The notes under the pieces: model-generated
The model's input: only the letters and a program-made list of their open reading frames with translations
The model's database searches: none
What the model was told of the DNA's origin: nothing
Part shown: in pieces, positions 2,411 through 47,147 of the stretch
Layout of the letters: each line of letters starts with the position of its first letter
Position numbering within the stretch: the first letter of the stretch is position 1
Assembly: GCA_035524755.1 (NCBI GenBank)
Contig: DATKOD010000003.1
Span: 2,206 to 66,205 of the forward strand
Length of the DNA: 64,000 nt
Direction of reading: 5' to 3'
Source of the DNA: Minisyncoccota bacterium
GTDB lineage: Bacteria; Patescibacteriota; Minisyncoccia; 2-02-FULL-40-12; GWA2-44-9
Program-made: the position numbers and the translations under genes

Positions 2411-4231
2411 TCAACGCTCCACGAAGTCGACCTGGATACGGGCGGTATCAGCGGGTAAATGGCTCACCCAGAAGGGCCGGAGCGTCAGGGTCGCCTGCTG
2501 GATGTCGTCGCGGCCCCCCACGTACTGCTGGAATGCCGCGGTATCCATGCCTTTGACCGCCGTCGCCAGTCCGGCGGCATCCACCGGGTCATAGCCGTTG
2601 CCGGTCACATCCGCGGTGAACGTGAGCTTCTGCAGGGTATCATCGTACGCGACATTGCTGAGTTTCACGGTCAGTTGGTCTGCCTGAACGTTCAGGCGGT
2701 CCTTGCGCAGGATGGTGTCGGCGATGAGCTTGTCCAGATCCGCCTGACGGAACGCGACGGTTTTGAGCGTCACCGTGGCCGTCACCGATACCGAGGCCGC
2801 CGCGTCATCAGGCTGAGCGTCCGACGTGAAGGTCGGTGTGCTTCCGGGTGCGTCGTCGGCGATGCGCATGCCGCCGGTCTGTGATTTCAGAGCATCGGCG
2901 ATGAGCGCTGCGACATCGGACGTCGCGGCGGTCTTCGCGGCGTCGTAATCCGCTTGGGTCACGACCGCTGACGGACCGTTGGCGCCACCGGACATCGGTG
3001 CCGTCGAGACGCCATAGATCTTGGCCGCACGGTCGGTGTCGCCCTTCTCCACGAATGCGGCGATGGTGAACTTCCCGGCGGCGATGTTGTAATCGGTACC
3101 CGGCTTATCGGCGATGACGCTCACCGTGACACTGCCCGGGACGGCGCTTCCCTTGACGACGGTGGAGCCGGGGACCGTGACCGTGGACAGCGTGCGGAAT
3201 ACCAGCCCGTTCGGTGCGGTGAACCGTGTCGTCGCGATGAGCGTCTGCGGCGTCGAAGAGTATCCGTTGTACACTGTGAGCGTTCCTTTCGCTTTGGACG
3301 CGACATCGCGCGAACCGGTCGCGGCGACGCTGTGCGTAGCGGATTTGGACATCTCCAGGAGCTGCCCCGGAAGGTTTCCGAACGTAGCGTCGACGGAAGC
3401 GATCGAACCGGACACCGAGACGGCGATGTGCTCATCCACGGGCTGGCTGGCAGGGGCGACCGCGATGACCGCGGAGCCTGCGGTCAGGTATACGACGATG
3501 CCCACGATGAGCACCGCGCCGATCAGGAGTGCGATGACGGTCTTTCGCGTCAACCACGCGATAGATGCTCCCGGGAATCGCAGCCGGCGGAGCGGGGATG
3601 ACCGCGGCCGTGGGACGATCGTCCCCTGCTGTGCCGCACGATCGCGCCATACCTTATCGATGTAATCGAAGCTGTCCTCGGTCGGCGATACGGCCGTGGC
3701 CGGTTTTTTGGTCCGGACCATTGCGAGGTCCGCATCCGCTTCCACCTCCTGATTGGTGACCGGTTCTTCTCCCTCGGTCCCTTCCACATGGAATCCCGGA
3801 ACGATATCGCTCTCGGCATCGGCATCATCCGGAGATGTCACCTGCTGCCGTTCATCGGAGGTCAGCGGCACGTCCTCCTCGAACGCATCCTCGCTCGGGT
3901 CCTGGATTTCCGGATCGGACGGCGGTGGATAGGTCGCCGCAGTGACGGCCTTCGGTTTGCGTACCCGCTTGGTCGTTGCGGATACCATGACATTGAACCC
4001 GTGAGCCCGTGCCCGGGCGGCGATGTCCGAGTTCGTGGTCAGGATCGAGATCGTCTTGCCGGCAGATGACGCTTCACCGGCAAAAGCGGCGAAATGGTCG
4101 TCTGAACGGAATATCTTCCCGTTCTTCGGCAGGACGAAAATCACTTCGCCGGCAGGTGCGGACCGGAAAACATCCAGAATATCAGCCAAGGAGTCGTCCT
4201 TCAGGATATTGATTATCTTGATGCCGGCCAT
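2411..4231 (-). CDS. hypothetical membrane-anchored protein (N-terminal ~90-aa cytoplasmic domain, acidic linker, one TM helix, large Ser/Thr/Val-rich extracytoplasmic domain)
   Basis: 606-aa ORF with a single hydrophobic helix (VIALLIGAVLIVGIVVYLTAG). No family recognised. It sits where secY/adk/map usually precede infA. Confidence 0.7.
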   Translation of the reverse strand: MAGIKIINILKDDSLADILDVFRSAPAGEVIFVLPKNGKIFRSDDHFAAFAGEASSAGKTISILTTNSDIAARARAHGFNVMVSATTKRVRKPKAVTAATYPPPSDPEIQDPSEDAFEEDVPLTSDERQQVTSPDDADAESDIVPGFHVEGTEGEEPVTNQEVEADADLAMVRTKKPATAVSPTEDSFDYIDKVWRDRAAQQGTIVPRPRSSPLRRLRFPGASIAWLTRKTVIALLIGAVLIVGIVVYLTAGSAVIAVAPASQPVDEHIAVSVSGSIASVDATFGNLPGQLLEMSKSATHSVAATGSRDVASKAKGTLTVYNGYSSTPQTLIATTRFTAPNGLVFRTLSTVTVPGSTVVKGSAVPGSVTVSVIADKPGTDYNIAAGKFTIAAFVEKGDTDRAAKIYGVSTAPMSGGANGPSAVVTQADYDAAKTAATSDVAALIADALKSQTGGMRIADDAPGSTPTFTSDAQPDDAAASVSVTATVTLKTVAFRQADLDKLIADTILRKDRLNVQADQLTVKLSNVAYDDTLQKLTFTADVTGNGYDPVDAAGLATAVKGMDTAAFQQYVGGRDDIQQATLTLRPFWVSHLPADTARIQVDFVER

Positions 4232-15876: not shown

Positions 15877-15948
15877 GCCCCTGTAGTTCAATGGATAGAA
15901 CTCCAGACTTCTAAGCTGGGTATCGAGGTCCGATTCCTCGCGGGGGCA
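15877..15948 (+). tRNA. tRNA-Arg (anticodon TCT)
   Basis: Hand fold: acceptor GCCCCTG/CGGGGGC (one G-U pair), D-stem GTTC/GAAC, anticodon loop CTTCTAA, T-arm CGAGG-TCCGATT-CCTCG, discriminator A. CCA is not encoded. Confidence 0.75.
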
Positions 15949-15965
15949 CCGATTGAGAATTCAGG

Positions 15966-16036
15966 CGGGCCGTCGTATACCGGTAGTACACGTGCTTTGG
16001 GTGCACGGTGACTGGGTTCGATTCCCAGCGGCCCGA
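15966..16036 (+). tRNA. tRNA-Pro (anticodon TGG)
   Basis: Hand fold: C1-G72 acceptor CGGGCCG/CGGCCCG, anticodon stem CGTGC/GCACG with loop TTTGGGT, T-arm CTGGG-TTCGATT-CCCAG, discriminator A. Confidence 0.75.
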
Positions 16037-16047
16037 CAGTCGAAAAC

Positions 16048-16118
16048 GCGGGATTGGTATAACGGTATTACGTCACCCTTCCAAGGTGAAGACAGGGGTT
16101 CAATTCCCCTATCCCGCT
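16048..16118 (+). tRNA. tRNA-Gly (anticodon TCC)
   Basis: Hand fold: acceptor GCGGGAT/ATCCCGC, anticodon stem TCACC/GGTGA with loop CTTCCAA, T-arm AGGGG-TTCAATT-CCCCT, discriminator T. Confidence 0.8.
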
Positions 16119-16180
16119 CCGACGACAGAAAACCCCGCAATATTGCGGGGTTTTCTGTTTGGCTCTAGAACCAATACGGA

Positions 16181-20004: not shown

Positions 20005-20610
20005 ATGGCGCATCTGAGCGTATTCTTCAATCCGACCGCGCTCATCCAAACGGTTGGGTACGTCGGCATCGCGGCCGTCATCTTCACCGAATCCGGCCTC
20101 CTCATCGGTATCGTGCTTCCGGGAGATTCCGTCCTGTTCACGGCGGGTTTTCTGGCGTCGCAAGGATTGCTCAGCATCATCCCGCTCCTCATCATCTCGT
20201 TCACGATGGCCGCGCTGGGCGACAACGTCGGATACTGGCTCGGCAAGCGATTCGGCCCTTCGGTCTTCAAGCGGAAGGATTCGATTTTCCTGAATCCCGG
20301 GAACATCACACGGGCCGAAGCGTTCTATGAAGAGCACGGCACGAAAACCATCGTCCTCGCGCGGTTCATCCCGGTCATCCGTACATTGGCACCGCTCCTT
20401 GCGGGCGTCGGTTCCATGCATTGGCGCACGTTCATGACCTATAACCTGCTCGGGGCGTTCATCTGGGGCATCGGCGTCACGTTCACCGGCTACTGGCTCG
20501 GTGCGGTGATACCCGGCATCGACCGGTATATCATTCCCATCGTCCTGCTGATCATCTTCTCATCGGTCATTCCGCCGGCGTACAACTACTACCGTCAGCA
20601 CCGCCGATGA
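20005..20610 (+). CDS. DedA-family membrane protein
   Basis: Multi-TM protein with the DedA pattern: GLLIGIVLPGDSVLFTAGFLA...ARFIPVIRTLAPLLAGVGSM. Start at MAHLSVFF (internal to the track ORF 19885..20610). Confidence 0.85.
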   Translation: MAHLSVFFNPTALIQTVGYVGIAAVIFTESGLLIGIVLPGDSVLFTAGFLASQGLLSIIPLLIISFTMAALGDNVGYWLGKRFGPSVFKRKDSIFLNPGNITRAEAFYEEHGTKTIVLARFIPVIRTLAPLLAGVGSMHWRTFMTYNLLGAFIWGIGVTFTGYWLGAVIPGIDRYIIPIVLLIIFSSVIPPAYNYYRQHRR

Positions 20611-20828
20611 AGCGTGTCACTGTGCGTGTCCATCCCGGCGCACGGCATGCGTCCGTCGAACGGACCTCGCCTGACGAGTTCGCGATCGCCGTGCGTGAAC
20701 CGGCGGAACGCGGCCGCGCGACGGACGCGGCGCGTCGTGCACTCGCAGAGCATCTCGGCATCGCGCCGTCGCGCCTTTCGCTCATCATGGGGCACGCGTC
20801 GCGCGTGAAAGTTTTTTTGGTCCGATGA
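20607..20828 (+). CDS. DUF167 (YggU-like) protein
   Basis: 73 aa, MKRVTVRVHPGARHASVER..., a small conserved DUF167-type pattern. Confidence 0.65.
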   Translation: MKRVTVRVHPGARHASVERTSPDEFAIAVREPAERGRATDAARRALAEHLGIAPSRLSLIMGHASRVKVFLVR

Positions 20829-21097: not shown

Positions 21098-21112
21098 TCT
21101 CGTCTTCACTCG

Positions 21113-21140
21113 CAAACACCCCGTACGGGGTGTTTGCCTT
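21113..21140 (+). terminator. intrinsic terminator (CAAACACCCCG-ta-CGGGGTGTTTG + CCTTTCAT)
   Basis: Perfect 11-bp palindrome directly after the micro-ORF stop. Confidence 0.55.
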
Positions 21141-21152
21141 TCATGTGAAAAG

Positions 21153-21176
21153 AATCCCGCCTCCGGTGAGGCGGGA
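21153..21176 (-). terminator. intrinsic terminator for the convergent minus-strand gene (ATCCCGCCTC-cggt-GAGGCGGGAT, then CTTTTCAC on the minus strand)
   Basis: 10-bp stem overlapping the last codons of the 21177..22541 gene. Confidence 0.5.
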
Positions 21177-22541
21177 TCATGGTCTGACCGCGACAGGCGC
21201 CGATGCCGTGTACTCGTCGCGCAGGTATCGGAACTTATCCTGGACGTAGCCTTTCGTCTCGCTCAGGAGACACTGCCGGTACGTTGGCTTGCGACAGTCC
21301 GTACCACGGGCATCAACCCAGTCGGGCGAGTTCTTCTTGAGCGCGATGCGATAGACCGCGGTCACCCGCTTGGTGCCGGTATTGTATCCGGCGAACTGGA
21401 GCTCATCGATATGGGGATCGCTCATGATGGCCGTCCCGAACGCCTTCACGTAGTCGGCAAGCTGGAGATCCAGGAGCAGGATCGCCGCTTTCATGCTGTT
21501 GAGCGCCTGCCGCCGGCCGGTATTGGTGTCGGTCACGAGGCCTGCGGCCGGATATGCCTTCCGAACCATCGTATATGAACTCGCGATGAACTGCTGCGGA
21601 CCGCATGCGCCCGCCGGACTGCACGTGAACGATGCGAACATGTCGCCGTTGGCGCCGATGGTGGCGTAGACGCGGTTGGTCGTCCATTGCGGGTCCAAGA
21701 TGAACTCGGTCAGGTCCATGTGCTCGATGGGCATGATCTTGTCGATGGGGAACGCCTTCGGATATTTCGCGATGACGTCAGCGATGAGCATGCCGGGCAA
21801 CGCCCGCGAGACGACACCCCGCGCGCGTAGATCATCCGTCGCCTTCGCGATGGTATCCGCCACGTACCGTTGTCCTTCTGCGATCACGTCAGCCACCGCG
21901 ATCGGTTCGCTGTACGGTACGTTGATGAATTCGGTGACCCGCGGCTGTCCCTTCTTCGGTGCATCATTGACGATGGGATATTTCACCCCGACGACGATTG
22001 AATCGGACGGCGAAGCGATGGCGAACTGCGTGTTCCAGTTGTTCCACTCGATGCCGTTGGCACGGCGCACGACGCTCATCGCCCACCCCGCCGGCGCCTG
22101 GAGCACCGCGACCGGTTCATTCTTGATGGTCCACTTCGTGCCGGTGCGTGTCGCGACCGGGACGTTCATCTGCGCCATCCCGTACGTTTTCTTGACGGTG
22201 ATGACCGATGTCGTGCACGTCGTGGTGTTGAGCACCCGCACGGCGATGTCCTTGATGTAGTCCTTGTAGACCTTCAGGACGCCCAGACGCACTTCCACGT
22301 ATGAGTGGAGTTTCTGGTCGTACGACAACGATGCAGACGCCAACTGGACATCAGAAGGGGTCCCGGCGATGACTGAGGCGATGTCGCATGCGGGTTTCGG
22401 CGGCAGCACCGGAGACACATCCTCCGGCGCATAGAACCCGACCCGTACCGATGTCGGATCGGGTGCTTGTGCGTGCACCGATAGGACCCCGAAACCGACC
22501 GCGGCAATGACCGACGTTGTGGTGATCAGCAGTCTACGCAT
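21177..22541 (-). CDS. secreted hypothetical protein (signal peptide, several Cys pairs)
   Basis: Start at MRRLLITTTSVIAAVGFGVLSVHAQA (M18 of the track ORF); this signal peptide is cleavable. About 454 aa with no recognised domain. Confidence 0.7.
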   Translation of the reverse strand: MRRLLITTTSVIAAVGFGVLSVHAQAPDPTSVRVGFYAPEDVSPVLPPKPACDIASVIAGTPSDVQLASASLSYDQKLHSYVEVRLGVLKVYKDYIKDIAVRVLNTTTCTTSVITVKKTYGMAQMNVPVATRTGTKWTIKNEPVAVLQAPAGWAMSVVRRANGIEWNNWNTQFAIASPSDSIVVGVKYPIVNDAPKKGQPRVTEFINVPYSEPIAVADVIAEGQRYVADTIAKATDDLRARGVVSRALPGMLIADVIAKYPKAFPIDKIMPIEHMDLTEFILDPQWTTNRVYATIGANGDMFASFTCSPAGACGPQQFIASSYTMVRKAYPAAGLVTDTNTGRRQALNSMKAAILLLDLQLADYVKAFGTAIMSDPHIDELQFAGYNTGTKRVTAVYRIALKKNSPDWVDARGTDCRKPTYRQCLLSETKGYVQDKFRYLRDEYTASAPVAVRP

Positions 22542-22604
22542 ATGCTCCTTTTGTACTGAGGGTTGGGAACGAACCCGGGAACGATACCACACTGTCGGCC
22601 GTCC

Positions 22605-23903
22605 TCACAGGTCGCTCTTGATGTTCGCCGCAAGCAGCTGGACGGAATTCGCATAGTTGACGCAGCTGGCGTTCGTGCTCGCAGCATTGCCGCAATAATA
22701 TTTCTTCGATGCCGCGATCTCTCCCGCACGGGTCTGGCTGCTGGCGCCGTCATTCGAAAGCTTCGCTGCGGCCGCGACGAACGCGTCTTCGATGTTCCAG
22801 GGATCGGGCAGCGCATGGCCGGATATCGCGGCGATCTGATCTCGATACCCCATCCACGTTGACGGCAAGAACTGCGCCGCACCCATGGCGCCTCCCCATT
22901 TGGAACCGCATGAGATCGGGGTCTGGAAAGGATCGCGGTTCAATTGCGCGGTGATACTGAGGAAATACGGGAGGTCTCTCGTGGGATTGATGCCGTAGGT
23001 ATAGATCTGGCCGTTCGTGATCCTCCGCGTCTCCCCGCTGGTCGAATCCACGATGTAGCACTTCCCGACGTTTGCCCCGAGCGCACTCTCTTGCTCGAGC
23101 TCCGCGATGAGGAACTCCGGCCGGATACCGGCTCCGATGGCGGCAAGCTGCCCATATTTGATCGCATCCTCTGCCGAGACGCCGTTCTGTTGCAGGTAGT
23201 AGATCTGTTCCTGCAGGCGTTGCAGATTCGTCTTGGTGGTCGCTACCAACTGTTGGTATTTGCTCTCTTGGCCCTGCGTCACCTTCAATAACTGGTTTTT
23301 GTCGGTTTTCGTCGTCGCAAGTTGACGCTGTTGCGCTTCTTGGAGCGCTTGAGCCTGCTCCAGACTCGTCTGTTGGTCCTGGAGCTGGGACTGTTGCTGG
23401 TCCAGTTGATCGCGCAAATCGCTGATGGACTGGATGGCCGTGCTCAGCGAGTCCTGCGTGCGCTGGATATCATGCACGCGGTCGAAGAAGTCCGACAGTG
23501 TGCCGCTCTGGAGCAGGATCATCGAGAGCGGTTGCAGATCGTTCTGCGCCGTTTCACGGAGCGCTGAGGCAAGCGCCTGCTGGTGCACCGAAATCTGCTG
23601 TTCCGCATTCTCGATGGCGGTCTGAGTCTGACCGATTTCAAGTCCGGTCTCATCGATGGACGCCTGGAGAGATTGGATCTGCGTGCTCAATACGCTGATC
23701 TGTGCGTTGAGCTTCGAGATTTCCGTCTGCAACGATTGCTTCTGTGTGCTCGCCTGGGTCAACTGCTCTTGCGCAGCGTCCAGCTGCGCCTGCAACTGCG
23801 TCTGCTTCTGTTGCAGGGCGGCAATCTCGTCCTGAACGGCCGCATGCGCCGTCAACGGAACGACGAGCGCACAAAGAGCGACGATTGCGACCAACCGCCT
23901 CAC
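22605..23903 (-). CDS. coiled-coil protein with C-terminal lytic murein transglycosylase (MltB/Slt35-like) domain
   Basis: A long Q/L-rich coiled coil follows the signal-like segment RRLVAIVALCALVVPLTAHA. The C-terminal region has GAMGAAQFLPSTW, the family-3 LT signature. A GTG start at ~23903 forms a GTGA overlap with the upstream stop; the track ORF extends to 23966. Confidence 0.8.
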   Translation of the reverse strand: MRRLVAIVALCALVVPLTAHAAVQDEIAALQQKQTQLQAQLDAAQEQLTQASTQKQSLQTEISKLNAQISVLSTQIQSLQASIDETGLEIGQTQTAIENAEQQISVHQQALASALRETAQNDLQPLSMILLQSGTLSDFFDRVHDIQRTQDSLSTAIQSISDLRDQLDQQQSQLQDQQTSLEQAQALQEAQQRQLATTKTDKNQLLKVTQGQESKYQQLVATTKTNLQRLQEQIYYLQQNGVSAEDAIKYGQLAAIGAGIRPEFLIAELEQESALGANVGKCYIVDSTSGETRRITNGQIYTYGINPTRDLPYFLSITAQLNRDPFQTPISCGSKWGGAMGAAQFLPSTWMGYRDQIAAISGHALPDPWNIEDAFVAAAAKLSNDGASSQTRAGEIAASKKYYCGNAASTNASCVNYANSVQLLAANIKSDL

Positions 23904-24346
23904 TGGACGATGATCGTACCGGTCTGCGACGCGTTCGATTCGTCCGCGTGGTTCAGGTAGTGGCACGTCTGTGAATCATTGAACGCCAATGAGTATGTCT
24001 CGCCGCGGTACAAGGAGCGGGTGGCGTCAAGTCCCGGGCAGCCGCCGGTGCCGCTGACGGTCATGGGCCAGAAGGCGATATCGGTGTCGTTGCGGAACGT
24101 GATGGCGTCACCGACCCGGATGGTGATGGTGGCCGGGGTCACGCCGGAAGCGGTCAGATGGACGATGTACCGCTGAGGTGTCGGGGTCGGCGTGGGGTAG
24201 TATCCGATGGGTGTGGGCGTCGGGGTCGGCGTCGTGGAATCGCTGGTCGAATCCGACCTCGTCGCCAGATACGTGATACCGACCGCCAGAAGCGCCACTA
24301 CGATGACCGAGATGATGAGTGTTCGTGAGGAGTACATAATCCCCAT
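23900..24346 (-). CDS. membrane-anchored hypothetical protein (TM, PT-rich linker, ~90-aa beta-rich domain, possibly cupredoxin/Ig-like)
   Basis: 148 aa with N-terminal TM LIISVIVVALLAVGITYL and a TPTPTPTP linker. The fold assignment is speculative. Confidence 0.6.
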   Translation of the reverse strand: MGIMYSSRTLIISVIVVALLAVGITYLATRSDSTSDSTTPTPTPTPIGYYPTPTPTPQRYIVHLTASGVTPATITIRVGDAITFRNDTDIAFWPMTVSGTGGCPGLDATRSLYRGETYSLAFNDSQTCHYLNHADESNASQTGTIIVQ

Positions 24347-24355
24347 GCTAACAGA

Positions 24356-24384
24356 TTGGCTGGCGGCTTCCAGAGGTATACAAT
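24356..24384 (+). promoter_or_regulatory. sigma70-like promoter (TTGGCT-17-TACAAT) placed to give a leaderless or near-leaderless mRNA for the pilin-like gene
   Basis: The -10 ends about 7 nt before the ATG at 24391. There is no SD. Confidence 0.4.
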
Positions 24385-24390
24385 GGGGCT

Positions 24391-24891
24391 ATGCACACAC
24401 GTCGGGTGCTCACTATTGGTGCCGTTCTCCTTATGGCAGTGCTTCCGGTCGTCGCGATTGCCGCTGATCAGCCGCTCCAATCAGGTTCTGATTCCCTCGG
24501 CGCAGCAGTAGCCTCGCTCTACCGATACGGCCTGAGCATCGTGGGTCTCGCAGTATTCGTTATGTTTTTGTATGCAGGACTCCTTAAGATGTTTTCGGAG
24601 ACTTTTATCAGCAAATGGGTACCGTCAGGTTGGGAAAAGAACTCTACCGTTGTCATTCAAGATGCGGTCATCGGGCTCATCCTCTTGTTCGCCTCATATC
24701 TCATCCTCAACACGATCAATCCTGATCTGGTGACGCCGCAGAAAGCGTCCCCGACGTCAACGACGACCTCGACCAGTTCTTCGGCGGGAACGGTGGGTCT
24801 TCCCACGAGCAGCAGCGTGCCGACGCCCGTACCGACATTCCAGGGCGGCGGAGGTTCATTCGGCGGCGGCGGTGCCTCAGGAACTTTTTGA
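24391..24891 (+). CDS. VirB2/TrbC-type (T4SS) pilin-like protein
   Basis: 166 aa with signal peptide MHTRRVLTIGAVLLMAVLPVVAIA. The mature part has two hydrophobic helices (LSIVGLAVFVMFLYAGLL; AVIGLILLFASYLILNTI) separated by a short loop, then an S/T-rich tail ending GGGGSFGGGGASGTF. The family call is by architecture only. Confidence 0.55.
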   Translation: MHTRRVLTIGAVLLMAVLPVVAIAADQPLQSGSDSLGAAVASLYRYGLSIVGLAVFVMFLYAGLLKMFSETFISKWVPSGWEKNSTVVIQDAVIGLILLFASYLILNTINPDLVTPQKASPTSTTTSTSSSAGTVGLPTSSSVPTPVPTFQGGGGSFGGGGASGTF

Positions 24892-24892
24892 T

Positions 24893-25090
24893 ATGGCATA
24901 CGTACTCGTCCTCCTTGCAGCACTCGGGATATTCGTTTACAGCACGCCTGCCCGCCAGGCGGTCAAGAATTCATTGGCAGCTATCGCGCAAAGCGCCGAA
25001 GTCAGACAGGCGGAAACCTACCTACGCGACAAAGTCACGGGATTCATCCGGACCGAGCTCCACCACGCGGTCGATGATGCGGTGAAATAG
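24893..25090 (+). CDS. small membrane protein (65 aa), hypothetical
   Basis: MAYVLVLLAALGIFVYSTPARQ... Its ATG sits 1 nt after the pilin-like stop (TGATATG). Confidence 0.4.
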   Translation: MAYVLVLLAALGIFVYSTPARQAVKNSLAAIAQSAEVRQAETYLRDKVTGFIRTELHHAVDDAVK

Positions 25091-25335: not shown

Positions 25336-26097
25336 TCATTTCGCCAGTGCCGCGTCGATGACCTGCTGGAATGCGGCGAACGGCTGTGCACCGACCAGGG
25401 AGACGCCGTTGATGAAGAAACTCGGCGTTCCATCGACTCCCAATGCGGTACCGTCGGCTTGGTCCTTATCGACTTCGCTCGCGTATTTCTGTGAGTCCAG
25501 ACACTGATTGAATTTCGTCATATCCAGACCGATGTTCGAGACCCACGTCTTGATGTCGCTGACACTGAACGATACCGTCCCGCCGCTGGGGTCTTTGGCA
25601 TCCTGCCCCGCGAAGATCGCATCGTGGAACTGCCAGAACTTCCCCTGCTCCGCCGCACAGGCACCTGCCAGCGCGGCAGGGCGTGCAGAGGGATGCAGGC
25701 TGGTCAGCGGGAAATCACGGAAGACGAGGCGGACCTTGCCGGTATCGATATAGGTCTTCTTCAGCAGCGCGAAGGTGTCGTTGTAGAACGATCGGCAGTA
25801 CGGACACTGGAAATCACTGAACTCCACGATGGTCACCTTGGCGTCCGCATTCCCCAGGACCGGATCTTCACCGTCCTCAAGCTTGCTGGTATCGATCGGT
25901 GCGGCGGTTCCGTCCGCCTGCTGGGCAGGAGCAACGGACGGGCCGTGGAACAGCGATGCGGTACCGCCCGAACCGACGAACAGGACACTGGCTGCGATCA
26001 ACAGACCTGCGACGATGATGGCGCCCGGAACGGACATGAACGGTTGCTTCGGCTCCACCGGCTTCGGCTGCTCGCTGACCATCGGTTGTTCATCCAT
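25336..26097 (-). CDS. DsbA-family thiol:disulfide oxidoreductase (membrane-anchored)
   Basis: 253 aa with an N-terminal TM, the thioredoxin motif FSDFQCPYC, and a DsbA-like remainder. Confidence 0.85.
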   Translation of the reverse strand: MDEQPMVSEQPKPVEPKQPFMSVPGAIIVAGLLIAASVLFVGSGGTASLFHGPSVAPAQQADGTAAPIDTSKLEDGEDPVLGNADAKVTIVEFSDFQCPYCRSFYNDTFALLKKTYIDTGKVRLVFRDFPLTSLHPSARPAALAGACAAEQGKFWQFHDAIFAGQDAKDPSGGTVSFSVSDIKTWVSNIGLDMTKFNQCLDSQKYASEVDKDQADGTALGVDGTPSFFINGVSLVGAQPFAAFQQVIDAALAK

Positions 26098-26107
26098 GAA
26101 TGGAAAA

Positions 26108-26494
26108 TTAGGGTGTTACTGACGGCTTCGCTCCCAACGACAATGGGGCGACTTCCACGAGGATGTTCGCCACCGGGTCGTAGAGGATCCCGATCTGCGC
26201 CGTATTGTAGATGAGGACCTTGTCGCCGACTTTCGCATTCTTGAAGAATGGCTGGCCGGCGAGCTTTGACATGTCGGTGACCGTCGCGACCACGGGTGTC
26301 TCGCCGGTCGGCAGTGCGTACAACTTCCCGACGGCGGCCACCAGCCGTGAAACTTCATCGAGCGCCGCCTGTTGTGCATCAACCGGTTTCCGGCCCGACA
26401 CATACACGTACGATGCGGTGCCGACCGCAACGACGATCAGGACACCGGCACCGATGACGACGGGAAGTTTCATGGATGGCTTCCAGGATATCAT
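26108..26494 (-). CDS. membrane-anchored hypothetical protein (128 aa)
   Basis: Starts at MISWKPSMKLPVVIGAGVLIVVAVG; the ATG overlaps the VKOR stop (TGATG). The track ORF 26108..26806 extends 5' antisense into VKOR. Confidence 0.5.
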   Translation of the reverse strand: MISWKPSMKLPVVIGAGVLIVVAVGTASYVYVSGRKPVDAQQAALDEVSRLVAAVGKLYALPTGETPVVATVTDMSKLAGQPFFKNAKVGDKVLIYNTAQIGILYDPVANILVEVAPLSLGAKPSVTP

Positions 26495-26913
26495 CAGTCG
26501 CGTTTCATGACTACGATACCGAGTATCAACAGCGTGGTCGATGTGAGCGCCGAAAGCATGCAGTACTGGCAAAACGCGTGGAGGATGAATGCTTGGACGG
26601 CGACGAAATACAGCGTACCCAGGAAGCCCGCCACCGATAGCCATGCCGCACGGTGCAGGAACCGCCGGTCCCATGAATCGAAGTACATGACCAACAGAAC
26701 GATCATCGCACCGTAGAACAACAAGCCGGTGGCCGAAACCGGTACTGGACCGATGGATGAGAATCCGCTGGCAAGCACCGCCTCGCATCCCTTCAGGATG
26801 GTACACGGAGGAAGTATTCCGCGCACATGCTCGGCGGTCAGGTACGCGGAATCCGCGAACCCGATGAGGGCCGTGATGAACATCCCGATGACGATCGCTT
26901 TACTGATGCGCAT
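26494..26913 (-). CDS. vitamin K epoxide reductase (VKOR) family protein, a DsbB-equivalent
   Basis: 139 aa with 4 TM and the active-site CTILKGC (CxxC) loop, plus conserved Cys pairs. VKOR fills the DsbB role in several bacterial lineages (established knowledge). Confidence 0.8.
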   Translation of the reverse strand: MRISKAIVIGMFITALIGFADSAYLTAEHVRGILPPCTILKGCEAVLASGFSSIGPVPVSATGLLFYGAMIVLLVMYFDSWDRRFLHRAAWLSVAGFLGTLYFVAVQAFILHAFCQYCMLSALTSTTLLILGIVVMKRD

Positions 26914-27652
26914 TGAGCGGTTGCAAAACCTTCGCCTTGAAATCGTCGAAACTGGACGGTTGTGCCATCTGCGAACCGTTCACGAAGAACGTCGGCGTTC
27001 CGTTCACACCAGAAGACACCGCGCTGTCATAATCCGCATTGACCGCGGCGATGACCGGTGCGGAATCGATATCAGCGGTGAATTTCGTCACGTCCAAGCC
27101 GAGGCTTCCCGCGTATGAAATGAATTGCGCACGCGCCGCCGAAGCCGACAGATTCTCCCAGGTGGTTTGGGTATCGAACAGCTTGTCATGCATCTGCCAA
27201 AACTTCCCCTGTAACGACGCGGCCTGCGCCGCCTGGGCCGATTCCTGCGCGTTGGGATGGATATCCCGCAACGGGAAGTAGCGGTACACGAGACGGACCT
27301 TGCCCGCGACCTGCGGATCGGCAAGCAGTTGGTTCACGACCGGGTAATACGCGGCGCATGCCGGGCATTCGAAATCGCTGTACTCCAGAAGCGTGACCGA
27401 TGCACTGGCAGGACCGATACTGATATCGGACGCCGATACCGGCACCGAAAGCGTGCCGTTCGTGGTGGTCGTGGGAACGCTGCCCGCTGCGCGATACATC
27501 AACCAGCCGATGCCGACGAGCACCACCGCAACGATCGCCCACATGATGGAGCTTCGCACGATACGGCGACGCCGGTCTTGCTGCGACTGCATCTGACGCT
27601 CCTCGCGCCGCGCTTGCCGGCGCTCTTCTTTGCTCGATATCCGTCCGTCCAT
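26900..27652 (-). CDS. DsbA-family thiol:disulfide oxidoreductase, second paralog
   Basis: 250 aa with a TM anchor and the motif YSDFECPAC. Confidence 0.85.
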   Translation of the reverse strand: MDGRISSKEERRQARREERQMQSQQDRRRRIVRSSIMWAIVAVVLVGIGWLMYRAAGSVPTTTTNGTLSVPVSASDISIGPASASVTLLEYSDFECPACAAYYPVVNQLLADPQVAGKVRLVYRYFPLRDIHPNAQESAQAAQAASLQGKFWQMHDKLFDTQTTWENLSASAARAQFISYAGSLGLDVTKFTADIDSAPVIAAVNADYDSAVSSGVNGTPTFFVNGSQMAQPSSFDDFKAKVLQPLNAHQ

Positions 27653-29997: not shown

Positions 29998-32232
29998 CTA
30001 GCGGGCGCTGCAGGCGCAGCTGACGGTCAGCGACGCGTCATGCAACCAGGCCGCTTGGACGCCGCATGCCGTGCTGGTGGCGCTGTCGGTGAAGTCGTAC
30101 TCGTAGGTGGTCACGCCCGGGATGGAGCTCTGGTAGGTGGCATCGTCGCTGCCGTAGTAGTTGCTCCACTTGTAGTTGTTGTTGGAGTTGCCGTGGCGAT
30201 GCGGCGTGTCGCATTCGTGGTTGGGGCCGTCCTGCCAGGTTCCGCCGTCGGCCGTGCAGGCGTCTCGCGCATGGCTCGAGCTGTCGTGCATGTAGTACAC
30301 GTACTGCGTCGGTCCCGTCTGCGGGAGCTTGTAGAACGCGTAGAGCGTCTGGCTGTTGAAGCCCGTGAACGTGGCGCTCGCGCCGGGGCCCAGGTTGAAC
30401 GTGCCGTTCGGGATGATGCTGTCCGCGGGGTCGTCCTTGTTCGTGGCCACCACGATGGCGTACGTGACCTGGTCGCTCCGGTTGTTCTTCAGGGTCCAGG
30501 TGTTGACCTTCGGGCAGTCCTGCGGCGGGATCGCGATGCTGTAGGTGTGGTCGTAGCTCTTCGTGCACTGCAGCTCCGACGGGCCATAGCTGACCACCTC
30601 GGTGTAGACGTCCGAGAAGGTGAAGGTCGAGCCGTAGGCCGGGCGGTTCACCACCTTGGGCAACGGATCGGACCACGTGCCGCCCGACGGGCGAACCGTA
30701 CCGCTGGTCACCTTCTCGGTGGTCGCGGTCTTGTCGGTGAGGTCGAGGTCACCACGGAAGTCCGGCGGGGTCGGCGTGTAGTCGGCACAGGTCTTGGTGC
30801 GCGGCGGGATGACCACGGGCGTCGTCACCGGACAGGTCAGCGAACCGCGAACGACCGTCAGAGTCGCGGTGAGGGTCTGCTGGCTGTCGGTCTGAGCGTA
30901 GCCGTGCGTCACGTTGAACGGATTGTTCTCGTTGTCGGACGCTCCGTCGCCGTATGCCAGCGACCCGGTGCCGGGGTTCACCCAGCTGCCATGGAGGCCG
31001 ACGTTGTACGTGCTCGCGATGCTGGCACGCACCGACTTGGCGTGCACCGAGTCCGCCCCCACCGTGTAGGTGCTCAGCTGCGGGTTCACGTCTCCGCATG
31101 TCGGGTCCTTCGCGGGCACCGTCTTGGTGAAGGGCTTGGAGACCGTGCACTTGAGGTTGTCCGGGCCGTAGCTCTTCGTGTAGGTGTCGCTGAAGGAGGC
31201 GTCCGGCTGTCCGAAGTTCGGACGATTGACCGTCGCCGGAAGCGCGGTGGACCACGTGCCGCCCGTCGGAGCGACCGTGCCGGCGTCGAACGTGTAGCTC
31301 GACGGTCCGGGGGTCACGCCCAGGTCACCCGTGATGGTCGGCGGGGTGTAGTCCTTGCAGGTGGGGTTCGTGCCGACCGTGACGGTGATGGACGGGTCGC
31401 ACTCCACACCGCCGCCGGTGAGCTTCAGCTTGATGGTGAACTTCTGCTGCGGCTCGGCGGGGTACGTGTGGCTCACGGGGACACCGTTGGTCGCCGATGA
31501 GGTCGTGTTGTCGCCCCAGTCGAGGACGCCATTGATCTTGGTGTCGCCGACCTTGTGGTTGAACTTCGGCGTGACCGTGATCGTGGTGCCGTCCTGCGTG
31601 TACGTGAGCGATCCGTTGATGGTCTCGCAGGTCACGCAGGGCTCGGGGTAGTTGAACACCACCCCGAACGGCCACCTCACCTCGTCGGTCGCATTCTTGA
31701 AGAGGCCGTCGTGCTGGTCCATGCCGCAGGAGTTGACGCTCACGTCCCACTGCGTCGTGAGCTTGACGCCCACGGTGGACGCCTTGAACGTCAGGTGGTC
31801 GTTCTGGTCGGCCCCGTTGCCGGAGCCGGCCGAACCGCAGCTGTTCTCGGGGGCGTGGAACGCGCCTGAGCGCAGCCATCCGTCCGAGGCGCTGATGATG
31901 CCCCAGGTGACGGTGTACTTCTTCGACGCGGTCACGACCTGGCAGCGGTTGTCGAGCAGATCGAGGTTCGTATCGAGCACGCAGAACGTCAGGGTCTTGT
32001 CGCGAGAGCTGACCGTCTCCTTGCCCTCGCAGATGCCGGAGCCGGTGACCGTCTGGCCCGTGCCGGATGCCGGAGGCGCCGGGACGGACGCGTTGGAACC
32101 GCTCGTGGCGGGGGCCTCGGAGACGACACTCGGGGAGGTGGACGTGTCGCCGCCCTTGTTGCAGGCGACGGGAACGAGGCAGACCGCCGTCACGACGGCG
32201 GCGATGCCCAGGAACGTCATCAATCGACGCAT
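29998..32232 (-). CDS. large Cys-rich lipoprotein with two internal ~100-aa repeats, hypothetical
   Basis: 744 aa. Signal peptide plus lipobox (LVPVAC). Two paralogous modules (TCKDYTPPTITGDLG... and TCADYTPTPPDFRGDLD...). More than 30 Cys. The segment has extreme GC with open frames on all strands. Confidence 0.75.
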   Translation of the reverse strand: MRRLMTFLGIAAVVTAVCLVPVACNKGGDTSTSPSVVSEAPATSGSNASVPAPPASGTGQTVTGSGICEGKETVSSRDKTLTFCVLDTNLDLLDNRCQVVTASKKYTVTWGIISASDGWLRSGAFHAPENSCGSAGSGNGADQNDHLTFKASTVGVKLTTQWDVSVNSCGMDQHDGLFKNATDEVRWPFGVVFNYPEPCVTCETINGSLTYTQDGTTITVTPKFNHKVGDTKINGVLDWGDNTTSSATNGVPVSHTYPAEPQQKFTIKLKLTGGGVECDPSITVTVGTNPTCKDYTPPTITGDLGVTPGPSSYTFDAGTVAPTGGTWSTALPATVNRPNFGQPDASFSDTYTKSYGPDNLKCTVSKPFTKTVPAKDPTCGDVNPQLSTYTVGADSVHAKSVRASIASTYNVGLHGSWVNPGTGSLAYGDGASDNENNPFNVTHGYAQTDSQQTLTATLTVVRGSLTCPVTTPVVIPPRTKTCADYTPTPPDFRGDLDLTDKTATTEKVTSGTVRPSGGTWSDPLPKVVNRPAYGSTFTFSDVYTEVVSYGPSELQCTKSYDHTYSIAIPPQDCPKVNTWTLKNNRSDQVTYAIVVATNKDDPADSIIPNGTFNLGPGASATFTGFNSQTLYAFYKLPQTGPTQYVYYMHDSSSHARDACTADGGTWQDGPNHECDTPHRHGNSNNNYKWSNYYGSDDATYQSSIPGVTTYEYDFTDSATSTACGVQAAWLHDASLTVSCACSAR

Positions 32233-42104: not shown

Positions 42105-42716
42105 CTACTTTTTCCGGAAAACGAACACCCGGAATCCCGTGAACGAGAAGATGAGCGCGACCGCGGAACCGACGACTGCACCGACGCCGGCCCATGCGGC
42201 CGTCGTGAATCCGGCCGGGCGGAGCGCGATGGTGATTGATGCTGCCGCGACGTTCACCAACACTGACGCGAGCGCGACCACGAGGAACCGCCCGATCTCA
42301 CCTGAGCCGCCCCGCGCTGAATCTTGGAATGCCCAGATCTTGTTCCAGAAATAGCTGTGAACGGTCGCAACACTGAATGAAAGGGTCTTGAACAGCGCGT
42401 ACGCGATGCCCGTGCTCAGACCGGTCAGCGCGATGAGCAGATACAGCACCCCGAAGTCCACGAGGGCATTGGCGAATCCGATGGCGGCGAACCGGCCGAA
42501 CTGCACGAACGGCTTGAACCACACCCCGAGGATATATCCCAGCTGCACGCCCAGGATCCAAAGGATGGGCACGAGCCAGATGAGTACCGAGGTGTTGATG
42601 CCCAACGGCAGCGACTTCCCCAAATACCGCAGGATGGCATCTGCGATGATCCCGGTGGTCAGACCGGTGATGAGTCCGTAGACGACATCTCTTCCTGATA
42701 CGATACGCATTGACAT
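42105..42716 (-). CDS. GtrA-family membrane protein
   Basis: 203 aa with 4-6 TM and a GtrA-like pattern. Confidence 0.6.
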   Translation of the reverse strand: MSMRIVSGRDVVYGLITGLTTGIIADAILRYLGKSLPLGINTSVLIWLVPILWILGVQLGYILGVWFKPFVQFGRFAAIGFANALVDFGVLYLLIALTGLSTGIAYALFKTLSFSVATVHSYFWNKIWAFQDSARGGSGEIGRFLVVALASVLVNVAAASITIALRPAGFTTAAWAGVGAVVGSAVALIFSFTGFRVFVFRKK

Positions 42717-42719
42717 ACG

Positions 42720-45149
42720 TTAGGTGGTACGTTCGAAGCGCTGCCGGATTTCTGATTCCACTTCTTCCCGCGGACGACCGAATTTCGCATGGCTGGATTC
42801 GATGATGGCATCGCGAACGGCCGGATCGCCTTTCGCCAGTCCGATCTCCGCGAGACCGCGCATGCTCGTAGGCCGCGCAACCTGACTGTTCACCAGCATG
42901 GATACATACGCATGGAAATTATCGATGTTGGAAACATCGTACGGAGAGAACACCGGTTCGAACTTCGTCTTCAGGAGCGGCATCTCGGCATCCTCCGGAC
43001 TGACACGGTACACCACCATGGTGCCGACGTTGCCGAAGACCGAATCGCGGATGGCGTCGTCAAGCTGCTTGATGAACTGATGCGCCATGATGAGACATAG
43101 GCGATACTTCCGGGCTTCCGCGAGGATGACCGAAATGGAATCCGTCGTGAAGTTCTGGAATTCATCCATATACAGATAGTGATCGGGCAGGTCAGCGCGT
43201 TTCGTATCGCGCGCCAATGCCGCACGGCGTAGTTTGCCGGTGATGACCATGCCCAACAGGTTCGCGTTCATATCACCGATCTTCCCTTTCGACAGGTTAC
43301 AGATAAGTATCTTCCGGTTCTCGATGACATCCCTGAAATCGATGACGCTCGTCTGTTGGTTCACGATGGGCCGCAGAAAATCATTGGACGTGAACGTATC
43401 GATCTTGCTGGTGACATATCCGGCGAAATTCGCCAGCGACTGGTCGCCGGTCATCTTCGTGGCTTCCAATTCCCAGAACTGCTTCACGACCGTGTTGGAC
43501 TCGTGCGCCAATAGGTCATTGCGGAATGCCTCGTCGACGAACACCCGTGACATGTCGGCCAGCGTCGGTACCCGCCGCTCGTAGTTATCGAGCAACAGGT
43601 ATGTCGCATTCTTGAAATACCGCTCGAACATCGGTCCGCCGGTCTCCTTGAGGTCGTACAGCTTCGACATGATCTCGAATAATTCGTCGATGATGAGCGT
43701 TTTATCCTGCGGATTGGACGGGTCGAACTCGAGCATGTTCAATCCCAGCGGGAACGACGTATCGCCGGGGTTGAAATAGATGACGTCGTCGATCCGTTCC
43801 TTCGGGACGTTCGCTAACACCCACTCCGCGAACGAGCCGTGCGGATCCAGTACCGTAATGCCGTCCCCCGACTCCAAATCCTGGGGTATCATCGACTGCA
43901 TCGTGACCGTTTTTCCGGTTCCGGTCTGTCCGATGATGTACATATGACGCCGACGGTCTTCGCGCGCGATGCGAAGCAGCGTCGACTGGCCCCGGTATTC
44001 GTTCATGCCGAACGCGATGCCATGCTCGGGAAGACCCGGTGGCGGCTCGGCCGTCTTGAAATTCACGAACTTGACCTTCGGCATGACCGCCATGCCGGTG
44101 GGAAAGTGGTACACGCTGGTAAGTTCCTCCGCCGACAGCGTGACCGTCTGAGCGTCATCGAACAGGCGAAAGGCGAATTCGAATTCCAACCGCTCCAACG
44201 CCTTGCCGGACAGTTTCTTCACGTTGAATCCGTTCCGGTCAGCCGTCGTATATTGCGAGAACGCGCCGGCGACATCGTTCATGATGGCATCCGCACGTTC
44301 CGGTGAGGACGATGAGGCGAGGATGCGAATGTTGCAGTCGAACAGCGGGCGTGATGCCTTGGACTGCAACGCGGTGATGAGTTTCTGTTCGAATTCGGTG
44401 GCGACCTTCGGCGGTTCTTTGAGCGCGGCGTCCGAGTCTCTCTTTTCATCCTTCTTCGGCGGATGCTGGGCGAGTTTGAGCGCTTTATGGAAATCATTGC
44501 CCGCCTGCATCTGACGTGCGGTATCGGACGCGAGTTTCCGGATCCCGGCATGCGACGACGGCCGGACCGCGATCTGGATGGCGACACCTTCGCCCTCCTT
44601 CTCGATCCTGCCCATCGCGCTCACCAGCGGACCGAGCGGATCGCTGGGCAGCTCGGTATAGGTCAGTACCGGCAGGATGGGATCCTCACGCTGGGTCAGG
44701 TAGGCGCCCGCCGAGCCGCCCTGCGGATTGAAAATGTTGTAATCCGGGCTCCGTTGAACGGTGGCGGTCGGAAACACGCCGACCATCTGCTTCTCGAACT
44801 GATCAGCGAACTTCGACGGCACCGCGGCGTAGAAATGGATCTGCTCGCCGATATGGTGCACCGCCATTTCCAGCACCAGGTACGGATCGCCGAACAGGAA
44901 CTTGTTCCACCCTTTGATCTTCAGGTTTGCCACCGACGCATACAACTGCTCCATGACCGCGATGAGTTTGCGTTCGTCCTTCTCCCCTCCCTCGGCGGCG
45001 AACCGCGGCAGAAGGAACAGCAGCAGCTGCATGTCCAGAGAACGCGACAACGACGTACGCGAACGGAGACCGTTGACGACGATCAACGCGGCGACGGCCA
45101 GAATGACCGCGACCAACGCCAAGAGTACAAGCGTGATGACGGGCGACAT
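42720..45149 (-). CDS. membrane-anchored AAA-like ATPase of the VirB4/TraC/HerA (DUF87) superfamily
   Basis: 809 aa with an N-terminal TM. Walker A (IIGQTGTGKT) at ~residue 405, Walker B (LYMDEFQNF), and a HerA/VirB4-like AEARKYRLCLIMAHQFIKQL motif. It has a ~380-aa non-ATPase N-terminal region. Confidence 0.7.
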   Translation of the reverse strand: MSPVITLVLLALVAVILAVAALIVVNGLRSRTSLSRSLDMQLLLFLLPRFAAEGGEKDERKLIAVMEQLYASVANLKIKGWNKFLFGDPYLVLEMAVHHIGEQIHFYAAVPSKFADQFEKQMVGVFPTATVQRSPDYNIFNPQGGSAGAYLTQREDPILPVLTYTELPSDPLGPLVSAMGRIEKEGEGVAIQIAVRPSSHAGIRKLASDTARQMQAGNDFHKALKLAQHPPKKDEKRDSDAALKEPPKVATEFEQKLITALQSKASRPLFDCNIRILASSSSPERADAIMNDVAGAFSQYTTADRNGFNVKKLSGKALERLEFEFAFRLFDDAQTVTLSAEELTSVYHFPTGMAVMPKVKFVNFKTAEPPPGLPEHGIAFGMNEYRGQSTLLRIAREDRRRHMYIIGQTGTGKTVTMQSMIPQDLESGDGITVLDPHGSFAEWVLANVPKERIDDVIYFNPGDTSFPLGLNMLEFDPSNPQDKTLIIDELFEIMSKLYDLKETGGPMFERYFKNATYLLLDNYERRVPTLADMSRVFVDEAFRNDLLAHESNTVVKQFWELEATKMTGDQSLANFAGYVTSKIDTFTSNDFLRPIVNQQTSVIDFRDVIENRKILICNLSKGKIGDMNANLLGMVITGKLRRAALARDTKRADLPDHYLYMDEFQNFTTDSISVILAEARKYRLCLIMAHQFIKQLDDAIRDSVFGNVGTMVVYRVSPEDAEMPLLKTKFEPVFSPYDVSNIDNFHAYVSMLVNSQVARPTSMRGLAEIGLAKGDPAVRDAIIESSHAKFGRPREEVESEIRQRFERTT

Positions 45150-45550
45150 CAGGGAGCGGGCTCAACCTTCCGGCGTTCCAGCAGTTGCGAGTGGAATTCA
45201 TCGGCGAGCACGTCGTGCAGTGCATCGATGAGCGCGGGATTGCCGGAAGCGACAGCCTGGTCGATGGCGGCCTGCAGGCTCTGCGTGAACACCACGTTCA
45301 CCAGTTGCTGCACCGGGCCGGCCAACGCCGGGTCCTGCCAGCTCGGCGTGCCTGCCACGGGTTGCGATGCCGCTGGCGCCGGTTGGTAGTTCGGCACTGA
45401 CTGTTGGATGCGTTCGCCGACCGCCTCATGCACTTCTGCCCGTTCATACGGCGTCGATGCGTCAGCGCCCAGCTCCGCGCGTTTCTCCTGGAGCCTGCGT
45501 TCCAGGTCTGCGATCTCCGTCTCGATCGGACCGGTGGTGTTCTCAGCCAT
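45149..45550 (-). CDS. hypothetical protein (~133 aa)
   Basis: Its stop overlaps the ATPase start (ATGA). No recognised domain. Confidence 0.45.
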   Translation of the reverse strand: MAENTTGPIETEIADLERRLQEKRAELGADASTPYERAEVHEAVGERIQQSVPNYQPAPAASQPVAGTPSWQDPALAGPVQQLVNVVFTQSLQAAIDQAVASGNPALIDALHDVLADEFHSQLLERRKVEPAP

Positions 45551-45581
45551 GCACATCCATTGTAGCACACCCCGTGCTACA

Positions 45582-47144: not shown

Positions 47145-47147
47145 CCC

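Follow-up and report, generated by a model that had tools for sequence, protein, structure and literature searches.

We analyzed a 64-kb chromosomal stretch (hereafter the window; all positions are counted within it) from a metagenome-assembled genome of Candidatus Paceibacterota, a lineage of the candidate phyla radiation (CPR, or Patescibacteria), with a G+C content of about 60%. Our subject is a cluster of three minus-strand genes in this window, here called A, B and C, whose products include a lytic transglycosylase (LT) fused to a long helical hairpin. An earlier note on this DNA had described three minus-strand genes with tight spacing and a GTGA overlap at 23900–23903, and inspection of the open reading frames (ORFs) and the underlying sequence bore this out (Table 1). 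The GTG start codon of B (23903–23901) lies over the TGA stop codon of A (23902–23900), which makes the overlap exact. NCBI annotates the same 432-amino acid (aa) product for B (P0049) and carries a version of A that is 145 aa long and begins at 24337. Homologues of all three ORFs are conserved, and because of this we treat them as genes and not as chance reading frames.

A gap of 63 nucleotides (nt) separates B from C, and an AAGGAG ribosome-binding site lies 5 nt 5′ of the C start codon (ATG). An intrinsic terminator starts at the last base of the C stop codon; an automated terminator scan gave no call after C, and folding confirmed the structure (centroid −19.7 kcal/mol, z −4.86, with none of 200 shuffled sequences as good). 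The layout supports a single, co-transcribed secreted/envelope operon, and the products of A, B and C are all predicted to be exported. A plus-strand hairpin (GCAAACACCCC-GTAC-GGGGTGTTTGC, 21112–21137) sits back-to-back with the C terminator (21147–21177), and both hairpins fall between the 3′ region of C and a convergent DUF167-type gene (20607..20828, plus strand).

On its other side, as the earlier note had also described, the operon diverges across 44 nt from a pilin-like gene, which starts at 24391 and which we tentatively place in the PF18895 family (see below). A promoter-like match in this interval ends 6 nt 5′ of the pilin-like ATG, so that an mRNA begun there would be leaderless or nearly so.

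Table 1. Coordinates of the operon, its signals and neighboring features within the window
Feature	Position	Strand	Description
Gene A	23900..24346	−	148 aa; ORF and sequence
Gene B	22605..23903	−	432 aa, GTG start; ORF and sequence
Catalytic Glu272 codon of B	23090–23088	−	
Gene C	21177..22541	−	454 aa; identical to NCBI VMU12_00530
Glu273 codon of C	21725–21723	−	
Intrinsic terminator of operon	21147..21177	−	10-bp G+C-rich stem, 4-nt loop, UUCUUUU
Divergent intergenic region, A/pilin-like gene	24347..24390		44 nt
Promoter-like match	24356..24384	+	TTGGCT, 17-nt spacer, TACAAT; consensus match only
Pilin-like gene	24391..24891	+	166 aa; signal peptide, two-helix membrane domain, Ser/Thr/Pro/Gly-rich tail
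Single-helix membrane protein gene	24872..25090	+	72 aa; overlaps 3′ end of pilin-like gene
DsbA-like gene	25336..26097	−	beside pilin-like gene
VKOR-like ORF	26494..26913	−	assigned by position; Pfam VKOR matches syntenic genes in L001 and L005
Second DsbA-like gene	26900..27652	−	
VirD4/VirB4-type secretion ATPase gene	42720..45149	−	809 aa; TrwB_AAD_bind, T4SS-DNA_transf and TraG-D_C matches

Proteins encoded by the operon

Protein B begins with a classical signal peptide (residues 1–21; N-terminus VRRLVAIVALCALVVPLTAHA/A, ending AHA-A) that is predicted to be cleavable, and it carries no membrane anchor. Its LT domain (residues 244–431; AlphaFold model, predicted local distance difference test [pLDDT] score 79) reaches 28.8 bits against Pfam SLT_2 (PF13406), for which the gathering score is 24.3, and B homologues reach 29.6–39.3 bits. 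In profile-profile alignments (hhalign), Glu272 of B (ELEQ-E272-S) falls on the catalytic Glu162 of E. coli MltB/Slt35 (GV-E162-T); it is invariant in 35 of 35 homologues with 47–84% identity, and the residue on which the earlier note had staked its LT assignment is thus in place. The fold is lysozyme-like, closest to family-3 structures, with matches to SltB1 and SltB3. Mean column identity in the B alignment is 56%, and four Cys (C282, C332, C404 and C414) are near-invariant. Judged from these alignments and the model, B is a bona fide family-3 (MltB/Slt35) LT with its catalytic Glu intact. The parts themselves are not unknown, since databases already name B "lytic murein transglycosylase" or "CwlO-like." Compared with MltB/Slt35 and SltB1/SltB3, B has neither a lipid anchor nor the Slt35 alpha domain but is fused to a long helical hairpin, possesses the four near-invariant Cys, and comes from a single-membrane (monoderm-like) CPR bacterium.

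The combination of a Q/L-rich coiled coil with an MltB/Slt35-type domain had been proposed in the earlier note; both the domain and its motif GAMGAAQFLPSTW are present, but the helical region spans about 220 residues, not about 250. AlphaFold2 models it as two helices of about 105 residues each (18–122 and 136–240) joined by a short helix (126–132). Residues at the hairpin tip (Asp122, Leu126, Ser137, Phe139 and Phe140) are invariant or near-invariant across the B family, and the second helix holds a conserved T-x-G-x-E-S-K-Y-Q motif. Because invariant residues lie within it, the hairpin is likely to be more than a spacer.

The best sequence-profile match of the B family in the PDB is PcsB of S. 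pneumoniae, followed by EnvC, and the PcsB match is co-linear along the whole hairpin (positions 10–270 versus 10–280, E 2.4e-4). PcsB, CwlO (B. subtilis), RipC/RipA (Mycobacterium and Corynebacterium) and EnvC (E. coli and V. cholerae) are wall hydrolases, or activators of these, that bear a coiled coil and are controlled by FtsEX or SteAB (PMC11627006). B shares with PcsB, CwlO, RipC and EnvC a signal peptide, a long helical hairpin and a C-terminal wall-active domain (PMC11627006), and several B homologues are labeled "peptidoglycan hydrolase CwlO-like" by JGI. The architectural likeness is clear; homology of the B hairpin to the PcsB/EnvC coiled coil is only suggested. Where PcsB, CwlO, RipC/RipA and EnvC have CHAP, NlpC/P60 or LytM as the catalytic or regulatory domain, B instead has an SLT_2 LT, a cutter of glycan strands. 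A 2024 review of coiled-coil hydrolases lists no LT-bearing member (PMC11627006), and the SLT_2 domain would therefore place B outside the described set, as a new variant. Attempts to assign B to a named coiled-coil family gave only sub-threshold generic matches in Pfam and NCBIfam (Smc, tropomyosin and DUF3450), and a precomputed PF24161 label on B homologues was not reproducible.

The earlier note had seen no recognizable family in the proteins flanking B and had proposed HHpred or Foldseek searches on the 454-aa and 148-aa proteins. Both now have a fold assignment: A adopts a predicted cupredoxin fold, and the fold search, not sequence search, identified in C a second LT domain of the family-1, SLT-like type. 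Protein C alone had no Pfam, NCBIfam or PDB sequence match, and its profile gave only 23-residue matches in the PDB, to phiKZ gp144. A predicted signal peptide (residues 1–25) is followed by a β-strand domain without a recognizable relative (residues ~50–210) and a divergent family-1 SLT/GH23-like domain (residues ~215–447). The AlphaFold model is confident (pLDDT 86.7), and its fold is that of family-1 LT/GH23 enzymes, with further matches to the phage lysins phi6 P5 and phiKZ gp144. In hhalign comparisons of C with Slt70 and with four family-1 LTs of E. coli, the match had a probability of 97% (E 8e-11). The C family comprises 638 clusters at E ≤ 1e-10. PF01464 (SLT) was matched by 11 of 25 C homologues at E ≤ 0.1; among the 10 with listed scores, only P0018 exceeded the SLT gathering score (25.0 versus 21.3 bits).

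Motifs II–IV of family-1 LTs can be followed in C: SPAGACGPQQF on S..GA.GLMQ, AGYNTGTKRV on AAYNAGPGRV, and SETKGYV on SETRGYV. The cleft residues Ser308, Gln317, Tyr386, Asn387, Glu428 and Tyr432 are invariant or nearly so, as are Ala312 and Gly314. Motif I, the Glu of ES about 18 residues before the Q of GLMQ, does not occur at its canonical spacing; with the family-1 fold and motifs II–IV but a displaced motif I, C was not filed as an ordinary SLT domain. An IEHxD motif lies further upstream, with Glu273 present in 46 of 46 and 27 of 27 sequences, and His274 and Asp276 each in 42 of 46. Glu273 lies 44 residues before Gln317 and, in the AlphaFold model, forms the C-terminal end of a helix. 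Residues 276–301 form a helix-turn-helix that may be a 26-residue insertion; when they are removed, Glu273 falls exactly on the canonical Glu and the score changes from 73.3 to ~78. We conclude that C is probably an active, rearranged SLT domain, which differs from Slt70, MltE, MltC, MltD, phi6 P5 and phiKZ gp144 in that the helical insertion would shift the motif I Glu.

Alternatively, C could be a catalytically dead, LT-like pseudo-enzyme that binds glycan strands and regulates or targets B, comparable to the degenerate LytM domains of EnvC, NlpD and DipM that regulate other hydrolases. The canonical Glu position is Gly299 in C and Gly, Gln, Arg, Lys or Leu across the family in a gap-free alignment, an acidic residue follows it in only 18 of 27 sequences, and the Pfam SLT matches in C homologues begin past the ES motif; the conserved substrate cleft and the strict coupling of C to B would likewise suit such a role. 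Against it stand the invariance or near-invariance of Glu273, His274 and Asp276 in 46 diverse members, the placement of Glu273 at the end of a helix, as for the catalytic Glu of family-1 LTs, and its alignment with the canonical Glu, at a slightly higher score, once the insertion is taken out. In addition, C occurs with no B close to it in L006, the most distant of the members examined. We consider a dead C unlikely, and it would be compatible with the role that we propose below for the operon.

Protein A consists of an N-terminal signal-anchor helix, a Pro/Thr-rich linker and a C-terminal cupredoxin-like β-sandwich, in which two Cys are conserved throughout. As a single sequence it gave only a weak match (TIGR02657, E 0.007), whereas its phmmer homologues carry PF13473 (Cupredoxin_1)/PF00127 (Copper-bind) and the family profile matches amicyanin and plastocyanin at E 1e-13 to 1e-17. 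The alignment columns of the type-1 copper ligands (His, Cys, His, Met) are occupied in A by Phe/Trp, Asn, Asn and Ser/Gln, and we rejected a copper site because of these replacements. A is thus predicted to be a membrane-anchored cupredoxin fold without copper ligands. It has the fold family in common with amicyanin and plastocyanin (PF00127, PF13473), but it lacks their ligands, is anchored in the membrane via a Pro/Thr linker and is translationally coupled to an LT. Orthologues encoded upstream of B at six loci (L014, L024, L029, L030, L031 and L062) keep the pattern WPAS..HPxH..CP...C.(F/Y)H(D/N)H; its four His and Cys pair, unlike a type-1 copper site, hint at another metal site. The HPxH...H(D/N)H portion is lost in the window copy of A and in one other copy.

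Distribution and gene neighborhoods

Counting one genome per species, we detected B relatives in at least 508 genomes, all of them Patescibacteria of the Paceibacteria/Parcubacteria type. The lineages include Yanofsky-, Taylor-, Nomura-, Campbell-, Harrison-, Jorgensen- and Nealsonbacteria, and identity across genera is 50–60%. B is a highly conserved core gene of Paceibacteria.

For gene neighborhoods, we built profiles of A, B, C and the pilin-like domain and scanned them on six-frame ORFs of 87 loci, comprising 29 distinct loci with a close B (>~37% identity) and 58 with a distant B (31–37%). In 26 of 28 evaluable close loci C directly follows B on the same strand; it is a fixed downstream partner of B in one subclade. 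A cupredoxin (A-type) gene directly 5′ of B is present in 12 close loci, and a PF18895-family gene is divergent upstream in 16 of 25 evaluable ones; A and the pilin-like gene are facultative neighbors. In four close loci without a pilin-like gene, murJ (lipid II flippase) is the divergent neighbor. None of the 58 distant loci has A, C or a pilin-like gene within 6 kb of B. The earlier note had named scattered homologues as an argument against its reading; the genes are co-localized in close relatives but not in distant ones.

Among the distant loci (L032–L091), B lies directly downstream of the gene for ribosomal protein bL25, on the same strand, in 53, with prfB, fructose-bisphosphate aldolase, L31, EF-Ts and S2 around it. 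Clustering of neighbors over all 87 loci returned bL25, prfB, fructose-bisphosphate aldolase, a pfkB-type kinase, L31, mnmA, EF-Ts and murJ as recurrent. The bL25-B arrangement conserves a wall hydrolase gene next to translation genes, which is unusual.

The earlier note had taken the joining of a coiled coil to an LT domain as a mark of enzymes that cut peptidoglycan locally for the assembly of trans-envelope machines. This did not hold up. PcsB, CwlO, RipC and EnvC have the same build, and neither the window nor 15 annotated loci have genes of a type IV secretion system (T4SS) or a flagellum beside the operon, nor do such genes occur within 6 kb in the 87 scanned loci.

The pilin-like protein itself has no Pfam match at E ≤ 1. 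The protein, whose two-helix domain ends in NTINPDLV, is 34% identical (E 3e-10) to the PF18895 (T4SS_pilin/VirB2-like) region of the positional orthologue at L008 and 49% identical to the L005 orthologue. The positional orthologues at L008 and L013 score 37.1 and 25.7 bits, respectively, against PF18895 (gathering score 26.6). These comparisons suggest that the pilin-like gene belongs to the PF18895 family. PF18895 proteins have been treated as VirB2-like pilins of a monoderm-type T4SS in Patescibacteria, where VirB2-like pilins were found in 1,948 assemblies (PMC12102498). Because the domain is embedded in proteins of 260–930 aa in many of our loci, the sequences suggest that in many cases it anchors variable surface proteins in the membrane and is not a dedicated pilin. 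At L003, L007, L009, L013 and L025, the PF18895 proteins measure 500–930 aa and have large extracellular regions, with β-propeller-like repeats at L003.

The 72-aa protein encoded next is kept downstream of the pilin-like gene in relatives (phmmer E 3e-10 at L005, 1e-6 at L018 and 1e-5 at L001). Beyond it lies the DsbA/VKOR block, whose synteny extends to L001, L004, L005 and L008. A, B and C have conserved Cys pairs and are therefore likely substrates of the products of these adjoining genes.

A candidate wall-cleaving module and its alternatives

The operon is best read as a housekeeping autolysin module that combines the build of PcsB, CwlO and EnvC with LT chemistry. With somewhat more confidence than doubt, we propose that A, B and C form a peptidoglycan module that cleaves glycan strands of the cell's own wall during growth and daughter-cell separation. 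We favor a housekeeping role because B occurs in at least 508 species, lies in a bL25/prfB/EF-Ts context, can have murJ as a neighbor, and shares the window with mreB, mreC, PBP2 and ftsQ. In the proposed mechanism, the hairpin of B would keep the LT domain inactive or mispositioned, as in PcsB, CwlO and RipC, until a membrane partner bound the conserved hairpin tip and released the LT at sites of wall synthesis. FtsEX and a SteAB-like pair would be candidates for this partner; in this lineage A might be another, which we include because its gene is translationally coupled to B. C would add a second glycan-cleaving or glycan-binding activity, and the products of the module would be 1,6-anhydro-N-acetylmuramic acid (1,6-anhydro-MurNAc) ends.

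Several observations weigh against this proposal. The PcsB match amounts to only 23 bits in a region of high compositional bias, tropomyosin, Smc and CheA match the B hairpin almost as well as PcsB and EnvC do, and no Pfam coiled-coil family is significant for B. The 64-kb window contains neither ftsE/ftsX nor another candidate regulator, none lies within 6 kb of B at the 87 loci, and no ABC pair of the FtsEX kind recurs near B in this set; FtsEX has been reported in other Patescibacteria classes (PMC11809585, PMC12592800). The substitutions at the canonical Glu position (Gly299) make catalysis by C uncertain. The results would fit a host's wall as the target as well as the cell's own. Finally, about two thirds of the close relatives have a pilin-like neighbor, for which a pure housekeeping model gives no explanation.

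This last point leads to an alternative in which B and C cut the wall locally for a VirB2-like pilus or T4SS-like structure, built from the PF18895 product or from PF18895-anchored proteins, and so fill the role of VirB1. The divergent PF18895 gene accompanies the operon in 16 of 25 close loci, including L003, L008, L009 and L013, whose wider neighborhoods differ, and the window contains a VirD4/TrwB-like ATPase. Moreover, most VirB2-bearing genomes lack VirB1, and other glycosidases might substitute for it (PMC12102498). In likeness to VirB1, the TraG/PrgK/TcpG enzymes of monoderm T4SS, FlgJ and EtgA, the secreted LTs described here adjoin a VirB2-like (PF18895) gene in many relatives. Unlike all of these, however, the operon stands outside any T4SS or flagellar cluster: no virB4, virB6 or virB8 adjoins it in any locus, and the ATPase gene is 18 kb away among glycosyltransferase genes. 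At the 58 distant loci, the 6 kb around B are free of PF18895-like genes, murJ takes that place in four close loci, and the adjacency to the pilin-like gene sits in a block of generally conserved gene order. The presence of PF18895 in surface proteins of 260–930 aa also looks more like an anchor than a polymerizing pilin. The LTs known from trans-envelope machines are small, belong to family 1 and lack a long helical hairpin (reviewed in PMC12102498), whereas B, in contrast to VirB1, FlgJ and EtgA, belongs to family 3, has a regulatory-type hairpin and occurs in many genomes without a pilin-like neighbor. On balance, we do not think a pilus- or T4SS-related function likely.

Attack on the host wall has been proposed for patescibacterial LTs (PMC11665869), and the secreted LTs of this operon could in principle be weapons directed at the peptidoglycan of the epibiont's bacterial host, used for access or nutrients. 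Export predicted for all three proteins, together with the cleavable signal peptide of B and its lack of a membrane anchor, would suit this use. We nevertheless find it quite improbable. B is unusually conserved (mean column identity 56%) and occurs as a single gene amid housekeeping genes (bL25, prfB, mnmA and murJ) in every locus examined, a pattern opposite to that of variable, fast-evolving host-interaction effectors, and its regulatory-type hairpin suggests control at the producer's own membrane. Hardly credible is a prophage remnant, whether a tape-measure-like or an endolysin module: B has a weak, coiled-coil-type PHROG match to tail tape-measure proteins (E 4e-4) and the C fold matches phi6 P5 and phiKZ gp144, but A and C have no PHROG match, B and C carry Sec signal peptides, no phage genes lie nearby and the chromosomal position is kept in hundreds of species; we rejected a phage origin on this distribution and context.

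A bolder version of the autolysin proposal can be formulated. Here B would represent a new class of mechanically regulated autolysin, with a coiled-coil lever acting on an LT, and would be the principal wall-splitting enzyme of Paceibacteria; within one subclade it would form an obligate pair with a new SLT subfamily (IEHxD, >600 clusters), and the same pair would open the wall for adjoining PF18895 proteins as the "missing VirB1." Taken jointly, these statements are tentative, and we doubt that all of them hold together.

The genomes of Paceibacteria are very small and encode few wall hydrolases. As a core, conserved coiled-coil LT, B would be a concrete candidate for their division autolysin. 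If this is true, the FtsEX-type "coiled-coil lever" extends from peptidases and amidase activators to the cleavage of glycan strands. The C family is a large unannotated branch of the lysozyme-like superfamily in which the catalytic motif is rearranged, and knowing it should help annotation as well as LT enzymology. Which enzyme stands in for VirB1 in Patescibacteria is a question raised previously (PMC12102498), to which the frequent, non-obligatory association of the operon with PF18895 genes is relevant. As far as we searched, there is no earlier description of the A/B/C combination, of the pairing of B with C or of the IEHxD subfamily; none of the findings amounts to a new principle.

Other features of the window

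In addition to the wall and division genes named above, the window encodes the housekeeping products RNase Y, MnmA, several aminoacyl-tRNA synthetases, GreA and RRF. It also holds five tRNA genes, of which tRNA-Arg(TCT), tRNA-Pro(TGG) and tRNA-Gly(TCC) are tightly clustered at 15877..16120 (plus strand), just upstream of the RNase Y gene. The T4SS-type ATPase gene is flanked by a GtrA-family gene (42105..42716) and by two PMT_2 glycosyltransferase genes (45408..48932); Pfam scans of about 45 ORFs recognized no other T4SS components in the window. Three large minus-strand ORFs have no significant Pfam family: 29998..32232 (744 aa), 61207..63984 (925 aa) and 2411..4231 (606 aa), the last with only a weak GlxA β-barrel match. 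These may encode surface proteins typical of CPR genomes.

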